DNA of 64,000 nt from Escherichia phage vB_EcoM_ESCO47: sequence record OM386662.1. One strand, 5' to 3'. Shown piece after piece: positions 19,419-34,317 of this stretch. A model generated the notes under the pieces. That model was not told where the DNA came from, searched no databases, and saw nothing but the letters and a program-made list of their open reading frames with translations. Position 1 is the first letter of the stretch, and every line of letters starts with the position of its first letter. Both the position numbers and the translations under genes were made by a program.

Positions 19419-19493
19419 GGCCCTTTAGCTCAATGGGAGAGCTGTCAGCTCATAACTGATAGGTAGCTGGATCGAAACCAGCAAGGGTCACCA
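19419..19493 (+). tRNA. tRNA with CAU anticodon (Met or lysidine-modified Ile)
   Basis: Manual cloverleaf: acceptor GGCCCTT/AAGGGTC, D-arm GCTC..GAGC, anticodon loop CTCATAA, T-stem GCTGG/CCAGC, 3' CCA encoded. Confidence 0.75.
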
Positions 19494-19497
19494 ATTT

Positions 19498-19569
19498 GGA
19501 TGCATAGCTCAGTGGTAGAGCAGTTGACTGTTAATCAATTGGTCCATGGTTCGAATCCATGTGTGTCCG
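19498..19569 (+). tRNA. tRNA-Asn (GUU anticodon)
   Basis: Manual cloverleaf: D-loop AGTGGTA, anticodon loop CTGTTAA, T-arm CATGG-TTCGAAT-CCATG; acceptor with G-U pairs; no encoded CCA. Confidence 0.7.
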
Positions 19570-19576
19570 CAAATTA

Positions 19577-19652
19577 CGAGGCATAGCTCAGAAGGAAGAG
19601 CAAGGACCTTCTAAGTCCTAGGTCGTAGGTTCGATCCCTACTGTCTCGACCA
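19577..19652 (+). tRNA. tRNA-Arg (UCU anticodon)
   Basis: Manual cloverleaf: acceptor CGAGGCA/TGTCTCG, anticodon loop CTTCTAA, T-loop TTCGATC, CCA encoded; T4 also carries tRNA-Arg(UCU). Confidence 0.75.
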
Positions 19653-26865: not shown

Positions 26866-27098
26866 GTATAGCAATTTACATTAAGTCAGAATCATGTGAT
26901 AGTTATCTGTACACATACGATAAAGATGTGTCAGAAGAAAAAATCAAAGACGACCTTAATATGGACCTTGATATGTTCTGTCCTATTGCAGATTACAAAC
27001 TTGCGGTCTCTAATAGTGAAAGTCCATCTAAAGAAACGCGCATTGAAGAATTTATGTCCGAATTAATGGCCAAATCATGGAACAGAGATGATGAGTAA
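26862..27098 (+). CDS. Hypothetical protein
   Basis: ATGA-coupled start at MSIAIYIKSE. Confidence 0.45.
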   Translation: MSIAIYIKSESCDSYLYTYDKDVSEEKIKDDLNMDLDMFCPIADYKLAVSNSESPSKETRIEEFMSELMAKSWNRDDE

Positions 27099-27546
27099 GA
27101 AAAATAAAGTGAAAGAGCTATCAGCCGGTATTATTTTCCTTACCGAAGATAAAGAGTTATTCATGGGGCGTGTAACTGGTTCTCGTCCTAAAGGTGCATT
27201 AGCTCATCGGTGGGATATTCCTAAAGGCCGTGTCGAACCTGGCGAATCTCCTATTGAAGCCGCTATTCGTGAATGCGAAGAAGAAACTGGGTTTACACAG
27301 TATGATCCGGCCTTCCTGAAAGATCTAGGTGAACATCGATACTCAGATAATAAGAATATTCATCTGTTCTATTATACGATCCCTGTAGAGCACGAGCAAT
27401 TCAGACACAGTGTTTGTAGTGCTTATCATACATTCCCTGATGGAACTTCTATCCCAGAATTTGATGCATTTGCACTAATTAAACCGAGTCAATGGGAATA
27501 TGTAATGGGTAAATCTTTATATAAGGTGCTCACTGCCATTCTGTAA
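27088..27546 (+). CDS. nudE: Nudix hydrolase NudE
   Basis: Nudix box GESPIEAAIRECEEETGF; immediately upstream of e as in T4 (e.1). Confidence 0.85.
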   Translation: MMSKKNKVKELSAGIIFLTEDKELFMGRVTGSRPKGALAHRWDIPKGRVEPGESPIEAAIRECEEETGFTQYDPAFLKDLGEHRYSDNKNIHLFYYTIPVEHEQFRHSVCSAYHTFPDGTSIPEFDAFALIKPSQWEYVMGKSLYKVLTAIL

Positions 27547-27553
27547 TTAATAA

Positions 27554-27580
27554 ATACCTCCTATAAACGTGGGAGGTATT
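27554..27580 (+). promoter_or_regulatory. RBS-sequestering hairpin with embedded late-promoter-like box upstream of lysozyme e
   Basis: Perfect 8-bp stem ATACCTCC / GGAGGTAT; 3' arm contains the SD GGAGG; loop TATAAACGTG. Confidence 0.65.
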
Positions 27581-28075
27581 ATGAATATATTTGAAATGCT
27601 TCGTAATGACGAAGGTCTTAGACTGTCTTTATACAAAGACACTGAAGGCTTTTGGACGATTGGCATAGGCCATTTAGTAACAAAGAACCCGTCTTTAGCC
27701 GTAGCTAAAGCTGAACTTGACCGAATGATAGGTCGTAAATGCAACGGTACAATTACACTTGATGAGGCTGAAAAGCTATTTAATGAAGACGTTGATAAAG
27801 CCGTTCGCGGAATCTTGGGTAATGCTAAACTAAAACTGGTTTATGATTCTTTAGATGCGGTGAGACGTTGTGCATTAATAAATATGGTCTTCCAAATGGG
27901 TGTAGCAGGCGTCGCAGGTTTTACTAATTCTCTTCGTATGCTTCAGCAGAAACGTTGGGATGAGGCAGCAGTAAACCTTGCCCAGAGCAAGTGGTACCGT
28001 CAGACGCCTAATCGCGCAAAACGTGTGATTGCTACCTTTAAAACTGGTACATGGACCGCGTATAAAAATCTATAA
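27581..28075 (+). CDS. e: Endolysin (T4 lysozyme, gene e)
   Basis: [32 protein letters not shown]... near-identical to recalled T4 lysozyme; start set at MNIF (ORF-track start 27569 upstream). Confidence 0.95.
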
Positions 28076-31791: not shown

Positions 31792-32334
31792 ATGAGAAAA
31801 GCACTACTCGCTGGTCTGTTAGCACTATCTTTAAATGCATACAGCTCCGAGCATACTTTCAGTAATGTCCAACTCGATAACTTGAAATACGCTTATCAGT
31901 TTGGGGAACAGTTTTCTAAGGATGGAAAATTTAAAACGCACGAAAATATGCATAAGAAAGGTCTTGGTTATATAATGGCTGCGATACTATGGCAAGAGTC
32001 GTCAGCAGGTATAAATGTCAAAGACAAAAAGGGACACCATTCTTATGGTATGTTTCAAAATTATTTACCGACAATGAAATCAAGAACAAAGGAACTCGGA
32101 TATAATATGTCCGATTCTCAAATTAAGAAAATGCTATCTAAGCGGTCTAATTCAGCAAGATGGGCTTATATCGAATTTTCTTATTGGTTAAATATACATA
32201 ATGGGGATATAAGAAAAGCTATATCTTCGTATAATGCGGGATGGAACCAAAAAGCAGGCCAGAAATATGCTAGTGAAGTCCTGGAAAAGGCTAATTACCT
32301 TAAATCGCATAAACTACTGGAAACACACGAATGA
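31792..32334 (+). CDS. Secreted lytic transglycosylase-like protein (T4 vs.1 position)
   Basis: N-terminal signal peptide MRKALLAGLLALSLNA; WQESSAG motif reminiscent of transglycosylase catalytic Glu. Confidence 0.5.
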   Translation: MRKALLAGLLALSLNAYSSEHTFSNVQLDNLKYAYQFGEQFSKDGKFKTHENMHKKGLGYIMAAILWQESSAGINVKDKKGHHSYGMFQNYLPTMKSRTKELGYNMSDSQIKKMLSKRSNSARWAYIEFSYWLNIHNGDIRKAISSYNAGWNQKAGQKYASEVLEKANYLKSHKLLETHE

Positions 32335-32675
32335 CCAAAATATTGCTTTTATTGGTTAGTATAGCTTCATTTGCAGCAAACGCAGTCACCAAATATGCGG
32401 AAGTTGTGGAGTATACAAATAGAACGTCTTCTGATTATTGTGGTAAAAACAAAGCGTGCCAGGTGGATTTTGCACAAAAACTTTTATATGCATACAAAGA
32501 TGGAGAAAAAGACGGAATGTCTCCCTATAAGTCAGAGACATTAATTAAACGATACAATAAAAAATGGCAAGTACTAGAATGTTCGGCAGCGGCACCAAAG
32601 GATAAAGCATTATGTGATTCTATGGTAGACCGCTTAGTTGATTCATATACAAGAGGACTAACTTCTTGTGATTAA
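32331..32675 (+). CDS. Small exported protein at the T4 vs (valyl-tRNA synthetase modifier) position
   Basis: 114 aa with hydrophobic N-terminus; assignment by synteny only. Confidence 0.35.
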   Translation: MTKILLLLVSIASFAANAVTKYAEVVEYTNRTSSDYCGKNKACQVDFAQKLLYAYKDGEKDGMSPYKSETLIKRYNKKWQVLECSAAAPKDKALCDSMVDRLVDSYTRGLTSCD

Positions 32676-33135
32676 AAACTATATCAAGGGCGATATCGTC
32701 GCCCTGTTTTCTGAAGGTAAAAATATTGCTCATGGGTGCAATTGTTTCCATACAATGGCTGCCGGTGTAGCAGGTCAATTGGCTAAAGCTTTTCCTAAAA
32801 TATTAGAAGCTGATAAGCTTCAAACCGAATGGGGTGATGAGACTAAACTTGGTTCATTTTCTGTTTACGAAAAGTATTTTAAAACTCATAAGGCATATTG
32901 CTTTAATCTTTATACACAGTTTGAGCCGGGACCTAATTTTGAGTACTCTGCTTTAATGAATTGTATGTTAGAATTAAATGACTTCGGTAAAAATAAATTA
33001 GCTAAACCGGTAATTTATATGCCACGAATTGGAGCCGGAATTGGTGGTGGAAATTGGGATGTCATCGAAGAGATTTTAGATACGTATTCCACTAAACTAG
33101 AAATTGTGATTGTTGATTGGGAACCGTTATTATGA
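32668..33135 (+). CDS. Macro-domain protein (TARG1/DarG-like ADP-ribose processing fold)
   Basis: GDIVALFSEGKNIAHGCNCFHTMAAGVAGQLAKAFP and later PRIGAGIGGGNW resemble macro-domain signatures. Confidence 0.55.
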   Translation: MIKNYIKGDIVALFSEGKNIAHGCNCFHTMAAGVAGQLAKAFPKILEADKLQTEWGDETKLGSFSVYEKYFKTHKAYCFNLYTQFEPGPNFEYSALMNCMLELNDFGKNKLAKPVIYMPRIGAGIGGGNWDVIEEILDTYSTKLEIVIVDWEPLL

Positions 33136-33344
33136 ATATACATTATCCACATCCATATGACCCAAAGAATAAGGCAGTAATTATTCGTCAATGGGAACGC
33201 ATTTGTCGTACCAAATGTCCAATTAATAGTCCACATGATGTAGATAAAGACTACATCGGAACATTAGTTGAATATACCTTTATTGATAAGAAAGGCCGTA
33301 AACAACATGTAGAAGAATATTGCTTAAAGGTGACATGGCTATGA
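33132..33344 (+). CDS. Hypothetical protein
   Basis: ATGA-coupled start MNIHYPH. Confidence 0.4.
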   Translation: MNIHYPHPYDPKNKAVIIRQWERICRTKCPINSPHDVDKDYIGTLVEYTFIDKKGRKQHVEEYCLKVTWL

Positions 33345-33547
33345 GTCAAACAAAAATTCTTACAGGTGCTAAATGCGAAAAATGCGAATGGCCTGTAGTT
33401 TTTGCTTTATGCAATGACGAAATGGCTTGTGATTTTGATTATTGGTGTTACTGTTCGAACAAAGGTTGTAGCAATCATAAAGGTGAAGGTTTTTACTCAG
33501 GATTTTACCCTTACCCAGATTTCGTTAAAGAAGGTGAACCTAAATGA
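33341..33547 (+). CDS. Cys-rich hypothetical protein (possible zinc ribbon)
   Basis: CEKCEWP...CNDEMACDFDYWCYCSNKGCSNH. Confidence 0.4.
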   Translation: MSQTKILTGAKCEKCEWPVVFALCNDEMACDFDYWCYCSNKGCSNHKGEGFYSGFYPYPDFVKEGEPK

Positions 33548-33735: not shown

Positions 33736-34317
33736 ATGGCTAGTTTAATTTTTACATATGCCGCTATGAACGCTGGTAAGTCTGCTTCATTACTTACTGC
33801 CGCACACAACTATAAAGAACGTGGCATGGGTGTATTAGTTCTTAAACCGGCTATTGATACTCGCGATTCAAAAGGTGAAATAGTCTCTCGTATTGGTATT
33901 CGTCAGGATGCCAATATAATTACAAAAGACATGGATATCTTTGAATTCTATAAATGGGCTGCAGCACAAAAGGATATTCATTGTGTATTTGTTGATGAAG
34001 CTCAGTTCTTAACTACTGAAAAGGTGTATCAACTTAGTCGTATTGTTGACGTGTACAATGTGCCGGTAATGGCATATGGACTACGAACAGATTTTAAAGG
34101 TAATCTATTTGAAGGTTCTCAAGCATTAATGGCTATTGCCGATAAGCTTGTTGAACTTAAAGGTGTCTGTCATTGTGGTAAAAAGGCCACAATGGTAGCT
34201 AGAGTCACGGAAGACGGACTTCCAATTACAGACGGCAGTCAAATTGAAATTGGTGATACCGATAGATATGTGTCATTATGCCGGAAGCATTGGAACGATT
34301 TGACAGGATTGTTATAA
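33736..34317 (+). CDS. tk: Thymidine kinase
   Basis: MASLIFTYAAMNAGKSASLLTAAHNYKERG... near-identical to recalled T4 Tk; P-loop and C-terminal CHCG zinc motif. Confidence 0.95.
   Translation: MASLIFTYAAMNAGKSASLLTAAHNYKERGMGVLVLKPAIDTRDSKGEIVSRIGIRQDANIITKDMDIFEFYKWAAAQKDIHCVFVDEAQFLTTEKVYQLSRIVDVYNVPVMAYGLRTDFKGNLFEGSQALMAIADKLVELKGVCHCGKKATMVARVTEDGLPITDGSQIEIGDTDRYVSLCRKHWNDLTGLL

Follow-up and report, generated by a model that had tools for sequence, protein, structure and literature searches.

A stand-alone macrodomain encoded between vs and tk of a T-even Escherichia phage: an ortholog of T4 tk.4/adfM with a predicted glutamine-type active site

DarT2 ADP-ribosylates thymidine in DNA, and its cognate antitoxin DarG2 consists of a macrodomain and a DarT-binding domain (PMC11825919). 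A phage gene acting against this system was described in a November 2025 preprint, in which a T4 transposon library was screened on a DarTG2-expressing host; tk.4 was the single significant hit, its clean knockout made T4 sensitive to DarTG2, and the gene was renamed adfM, for anti-DarT factor Macrodomain (bioRxiv 10.1101/2025.11.20.689424). The same preprint proposes that T4 AdfM enzymatically removes ADP-ribose from DNA and emphasizes its likeness to M. tuberculosis DarG; the evidence is genetic, comes from the preprint, and concerns T4 itself only (bioRxiv 10.1101/2025.11.20.689424). Orthologs of tk.4 had been matched to an "A1pp phosphatase" (macro) domain in 2006 (PMC1524935), and many GenBank records label the gene "macro domain protein" or "phosphatase". 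The name AdfM was given independently to gp104 of phage PhiKZ in a 2026 Cell Rep paper, where the protein was shown biochemically to remove DarT2-made ADP-ribose from TNTC DNA (PMC13309987).

Cellular macrodomains of related type differ in their catalytic residues. Human TARG1/OARD1 (PDB 4J5R/4J5S) uses the dyad K84/D125, and the DarG macrodomain (T. aquaticus, 5M31/5M3E; M. tuberculosis, 5M3I) has a catalytic lysine, K80 in the T. aquaticus protein. SCO6735 from Streptomyces coelicolor (PDB 5E3B) has neither the Lys nor the Asp, yet rescues E. coli from DarT, and it clears DNA of thymidine-linked ADP-ribose more rapidly than DarG or TARG1 does (PMC9411070). The SCO6735 variants Q85A and N27S are dead, with Q85A abolishing hydrolysis of T-ADPr DNA; its authors put forward a mechanism in which the attack comes from a water held by the backbone and the Gln serves to place the distal ribose, and they tie an extended mobile loop of the protein to DNA processivity (PMC9411070). 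RNA carrying uracil-linked ADP-ribose is a further substrate from which SCO6735 and TARG1 take off the modification (PMC13036486).

The window analysed here is a 64,000-nucleotide stretch of Escherichia phage vB_EcoM_ESCO47 (OM386662.1). Its ORF list contains a gene at 32668..33135 (+ strand, stop included) that encodes 155 aa from a GTG start; the preliminary description had taken this for a macro-domain gene between vs and tk, and the ORF, its Pfam and PHROG matches, and its neighbours bear this out. Because it is matched in Pfam, PHROG and tblastn searches, the ORF is not a chance reading frame. The upstream neighbour is vs (32331..32675, +; phrog "valyl tRNA synthetase modifier"), whose stop is overlapped by 8 nt by the GTG start, and the annotated homolog in Shigella phage JK42 begins at the corresponding codon. 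Further 5' lie a vs.1-like ORF and then regB, the latter assigned by position and by annotation of the matching JK42 region; downstream, three small ORFs, in order tk.3-like (phrog_2008), phrog_2306 and tk.2-like (phrog_653), separate the gene from tk at 33736..34317. The order regB-vs.1-vs-macro-tk.3-like-...-tk is that of T4 and JK42. The phrog_2306 ORF between the tk.3-like and tk.2-like ORFs (33341-33547, +) encodes a cysteine-rich 68-aa protein, CEKCEW...CNDEMACDFDYWCYCSNKGCSNH; T4 has no gene at this place, and instead has tk.1 adjoining tk.

The window DNA is that of a T-even phage, and the genome around the macrodomain gene is Mosigvirus-like rather than T4 itself; the region is about 90% identical at the nucleotide level to Mosigvirus genomes such as JK42 and SA79RD, and 25 kb around the gene show about 92% nucleotide identity to JS09 and TU01 over 88% of their length. 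A record identical to the window was absent from the phage collection searched. Elsewhere in the window a tRNA cluster is found at 19419-19652 (+) with Met-CAT, Asn-GTT and Arg-TCT (ARAGORN and Rfam). A gene for a NudE-like Nudix hydrolase (27088-27546, +) lies directly 5' of the lysozyme gene e (27569-28075, +), some 5 kb before the macrodomain gene. T4 NudE is reported to hydrolyse ADP-ribose, and therefore the NudE-like enzyme could dispose of the macrodomain product.

Several RNA and promoter elements are predicted at the start of the gene and within it. A Shine-Dalgarno-like AAGAGGA (32651..32657, +), read from the sequence, lies 10 nt 5' of the GTG, within the 3'-terminal part of vs; its predicted pairing partner is 32662-32668, and the resulting small hairpin (32650-32668) reaches the start codon and suggests translational coupling of the macrodomain gene to vs. 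A perfect 8-bp hairpin, AGGGCGAT-ATC-GTCGCCCT followed by GTTTTCTG, occupies 32687-32705 (+) over macrodomain codons 7-13, and the RNA fold of 32650-32725 has an energy of -19.5 kcal/mol (z -3.2). The stem at 32687-32705 is identical in T4, JK42 and UAB_60 and is absent in the T4-like Klebsiella phage kv_tblp5; an attenuator role for this terminator-like, intra-ORF hairpin was set aside on the loss of the stem in the Klebsiella phage. The hairpins at the gene start may serve in translational coupling to vs or as an RNA-stability element. Within the ORF, a MotA-type middle-promoter-like motif, GCTT-N15-TAGAAT, is found at 32950-32974 (+); phage SA79RD has a T4-like middle promoter annotated at the homologous site, and from this motif the small ORFs further 3' and tk would be transcribed. 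Sigma-70 promoters were not enriched when 30.5-35 kb was scanned for them (16 found, 16.9 expected from shuffles), and Rfam had no match in the macrodomain region, its only matches being the three tRNAs at 19.4 kb.

The encoded protein is an ALC1-like (TARG1/DarG) class macrodomain, an assignment made because Pfam, AlphaFold2, Foldseek and family-profile results agree. The checks proposed in the preliminary description included an HMM search and a structure prediction, and it had named a fold that is not macro-like as evidence to the contrary. Pfam Macro PF01661 is matched above its gathering score (25.8 bits against 22), residues 22-136 covering profile positions 2-117 of 118, and PHROG 335 ("phosphatase") is matched at 1.5e-65. 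The AlphaFold2 model, built with 52 homologs, has a pLDDT of 95.5 and a pTM of 0.90 and shows the three-layer alpha/beta/alpha macro fold. Foldseek against the PDB with this model finds TARG1, Poa1p, Bt_1257 and DarG at E 1e-10 to 1e-7, and a sequence search with the family profile finds the same four again at 3e-16 to 1.5e-10; the nearest relatives by structure and by sequence thus belong to the ALC1-like class (TARG1, DarG, Poa1p, SCO6735), apart from MacroD-type and viral macrodomains. The TARG1/DarG-type domain that had been proposed is confirmed at this level of class by the Foldseek and profile matches.

The two motifs that the preliminary description had picked out in this ORF correspond to the loop-1 and loop-2 regions, and both Gly-rich loops of a macrodomain are present (residues 30-36 and 119-128). 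The loop-1 region, residues 20-43 (IAHGCNCFHTMAAGVAGQLAKAFP; 32725..32796, +), contains His22, Gly23, Asn25 (codon 32740-32742, +) and the first Gly-rich, phosphate-binding loop. The loop-2 region, residues 119-130 (PRIGAGIGGGNW; 33022..33057, +), is the second Gly-rich loop, for the diphosphate and distal ribose; it aligns with PRIGCGLAGG of Bt_1257/SCO6735 and with PRIGCGLDRLQW of TARG1, and P119, I121, G122 and G124 are invariant in a 52-sequence alignment. Ala31 (codon 32758-32760), in the first phosphate loop (M-G-x-G), is the protein's sole departure from the family consensus at the level of at least 85%. Gly stands there in 105/120 relatives, and K, D or N in other members; residue 31 seems tolerant of change, because close relatives carry Lys.

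The closest characterized homolog is T4 Tk.4 (NP_049723), which is identical at 137/155 residues (88%) with no gaps (E 2e-108). Both proteins are 155 aa long and share N25, Q84 and the loop motifs, and T4 tk.4 likewise lies between vs and tk.3; they differ by 18 substitutions, among them G31A, S32A and K127G, and at the start, which is GTG with an 8-nt vs overlap in the window, whereas T4 tk.4 has ATG and a 4-nt overlap. The window gene is an ortholog of T4 tk.4/adfM and thus of an already known kind, because the role of that gene has been assigned experimentally.

The catalytic residues were compared in three independent alignments. In the first TARG1 was aligned to the family HMM, in the second the family was matched by hhalign to a DarG-type alignment (probability 98.8%), and the third was a MAFFT set of the window protein with Bt_1257, SCO6735, TARG1, two DarGs and PhiKZ gp104. 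In all three, Gln84 (codon 32917..32919, +) stands where DarG (K80) and TARG1 (K84) have their catalytic Lys. Gly126 aligns with TARG1 D125, so that the dyad K84/D125 is replaced by Q84/G126, and Asn25 aligns with N22 of DarG, N27 of SCO6735 and N23 of PhiKZ AdfM, whereas TARG1 has Ser there. Q84 is found in 121/121 family members and N25 in 120/121. In the MAFFT alignment Q84 and N25 correspond to Q85 and N27 of SCO6735; judged by these alignments, the Asn25/Gln84 pair is the putative active-site pattern of SCO6735 and Bt_1257, not the lysine of DarG. This Gln-type active site of the T4-type AdfM is a detail beyond the preprint, and a modest novelty.

The resemblance to described proteins is partial in each case. 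SCO6735 and Bt_1257 (Bacteroides, PDB 2FG1/2AFC) are cellular proteins, 22-30% identical to the phage protein, and they carry a mobile loop about five residues longer than that of DarG/TARG1, which the phage protein lacks: 7 residues separate Q84 from Y92, compared with 13 in Bt_1257 and 12 in SCO6735, so that its loop is shorter by 5-6 residues. TARG1 is the top Foldseek match (2.6e-10) and shares the PRIGxG loop and the overall size. Membership in DarG was rejected on several grounds. NCBIfam NF048014 scores 27.5 bits against a cut-off of 250, with only the macro part of its 338-position model matched; the protein, 155 aa with one macro domain, has no C-terminal DarT-binding domain, a requirement for DarG (PMC11825919). 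In addition, the window gene has no darT alongside (its neighbours are vs and the tk.3-like ORF), and its product lacks the catalytic Lys. Yeast Poa1p (PDB 6LFQ), an ADP-ribose-1''-phosphate phosphatase, has Ser rather than Gln at the Q84 position in an ungapped alignment; its His23 and Ser30 align with His22, which is kept in 118/121 family members, and Thr29, at a position that is variable (T 75, L 11, S 7, V 7, A 6 and M 4 of 121).

PhiKZ gp104 and T4 AdfM share a name and a role, as phage macrodomains against DarT2-made DNA ADP-ribose. When the published sequence of gp104 is translated, it is of DarG type (E 9e-25 to Mtb DarG), and its FPTK motif contains Lys78. An equivalence of the window protein with PhiKZ AdfM was rejected, as BLASTP aligns only 26 residues at E 0.01 and gp104 is a Lys-type relative of DarG. 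By these comparisons "AdfM" covers two distinct macrodomain subfamilies that differ in the catalytic position, the Gln-type, SCO6735-like T4 Tk.4 and the Lys-type, DarG-like PhiKZ gp104.

Relatives of the window protein are encoded in 2,768 of 50,697 phage records (tblastn), the carriers being T4-like phages of many hosts, Felixounavirus, Vequintavirus-like and Ackermannviridae-like phages, and Pseudomonas and Vibrio phages. Among E. coli T-even phages two allele classes occur, 87-94% and about 57% identical. Tk.4 of Salmonella phage UAB_60 has about 57% protein identity to the window and T4 alleles, and the first ~45 nt of its gene are those of T4. Because this start is identical to T4 in a gene whose protein is only ~57% identical, the UAB_60 sequence points to a recombination junction inside tk.4, with two allele classes circulating in Tequatrovirus. 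When one genome per bacterial species was scanned, 375 bacterial stretches were found to encode relatives at 35-44% identity; these come from Rhodobacterales, Verrucomicrobia, Desulfobacterales, Bacteroidota and further groups, and many of them lie on large chromosomal contigs. The best 80 of the 375 are stand-alone ORFs of about 150 aa; H22, N25 and Q84 are kept in all 80, and the loop after the Gln is mostly 3 residues longer. A Pfam scan of the 139 ORFs flanking these 80 loci found mixed housekeeping neighbours (Exo_endo_phos 7, PALP 6, semialdehyde dehydrogenase 6, NADAR 4, NUDIX 2), and the NADAR and NUDIX neighbours hint at small ADP-ribose-processing gene pairs. DarT is absent among the 25 commonest neighbour Pfam families of these ORFs, and this argues, short of proof and as judged on those 25 families, against a DarTG operon as the source of the T4-type family.

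With high probability, by analogy with T4 AdfM and SCO6735, the window protein removes DarT2-made ADP-ribose from phage DNA as a stand-alone macrodomain glycohydrolase. The gene would be expressed early in infection, within the regB-vs.1-vs-tk.4-tk string. Host DarTG2 would release DarT2, which would ADP-ribosylate thymidines in single-stranded phage DNA at the TNTC motif and block replication; the two Gly-rich loops of the phage protein would then bind the ADP-ribose, and hydrolysis of the thymidine-ribose bond would restore replicable DNA. In the proposed chemistry, Gln84, kept in place by Asn25, would position the distal ribose for attack by a backbone-activated water, with no lysine nucleophile. 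This chemistry is most likely SCO6735-like rather than DarG-like; for the window protein itself, we infer T-ADPr DNA hydrolysis by the SCO6735 mechanism from these likenesses. Points that weigh against the reading are the 12% divergence from T4 Tk.4, Ala31 in the phosphate-binding loop, and the short loop after Gln84 in place of the extended one tied to processivity in SCO6735.

Other roles can be considered for a protein of this class. It might act as a Poa1p-like small-molecule enzyme, an ADP-ribose-1''-phosphate phosphatase or O-acetyl-ADP-ribose deacetylase that clears NAD-derived metabolites rather than repairing DNA. Such a role is very improbable: residue 29, the site of Poa1p Ser30, is variable across the family, the conserved pair is instead N25/Q84, the signature of the DNA hydrolase SCO6735, and the sole phenotype found for T4 tk.4 is DarTG2-specific; the "phosphatase" label itself stems from the 2006 domain-database match and not from an assay (PMC1524935). 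For a purely binding role, either as a sponge for ADP-ribose-derived signals or as a stoichiometric inhibitor of DarT2, there are precedents in macrodomains that bind their ligand alone and in AdfA and AdfB, anti-DarT factors that inhibit the toxin directly (PMC13309987). It is very unlikely, because the residues needed for catalysis in SCO6735 are strictly conserved; the Asn/Gln catalytic positions and both Gly loops are retained across more than 200 relatives including cellular ones, and the window protein has no counterpart of the C-terminal domain with which DarG binds DarT.

The preliminary description had left open whether the protein regulates the phage's own ADP-ribosylation or serves counter-defence. 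T-even phages encode three ADP-ribosyltransferases (Alt, ModA and ModB), which modify arginine, so an eraser or tuner of these marks on host proteins or of RNA-linked adducts is conceivable, the more so as the substrates of TARG1-like macrodomains extend beyond DNA, for example to U-ADPr RNA (PMC13036486). It is nevertheless very improbable that this is the function, since the chemistry known for the ALC1-like class does not support reversal of the arginine modification made by Alt, ModA and ModB, insertions in T4 tk.4 are depleted only when DarTG2 is present in the condition compared, and the family is also spread over Felixounavirus, Ackermannviridae, Pseudomonas and Vibrio phages, which would count against this function if these phages lack Alt/Mod homologs. 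To our knowledge, the enzymes reported to hydrolyse ADP-ribosyl-arginine belong to the ARH family, and ALC1-like macrodomains are not among them. The counter-defence half of the earlier suggestion therefore stands, on orthology to the DarTG2-linked T4 tk.4, while the regulator half is disfavoured by the DarTG2-specific phenotype and the chemistry of the class.

As a T-even counter-defence, erasure of the DNA mark made by DarTG2 complements the NADAR protein AdfN, which handles DarTG1. To this the window gene adds one more ortholog, with the predicted Asn/Gln active site as a mechanistic by-product; for T4-type AdfM the labels "DarG-like" and "phosphatase" are both misleading, and the catalytic mutants to choose are Q84A and N25A, not a lysine mutant. 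A more tentative idea, which we hold to be possible but rather doubtful, is that T4-type AdfM is not a captured DarG but a stand-alone cellular nucleic-acid de-ADP-ribosylase of the Gln type (SCO6735-like), with broad action, that phages recruited independently. If so, T4 Tk.4 and PhiKZ gp104 would be convergent solutions with different catalytic chemistry; T4-type AdfM might, as SCO6735 and TARG1 do, act on any thymine- or uracil-linked ADP-ribose in DNA and RNA, whichever transferase had made the mark, and would be a broad-spectrum counter to base-ADP-ribosylating defences rather than one specific to DarT2.
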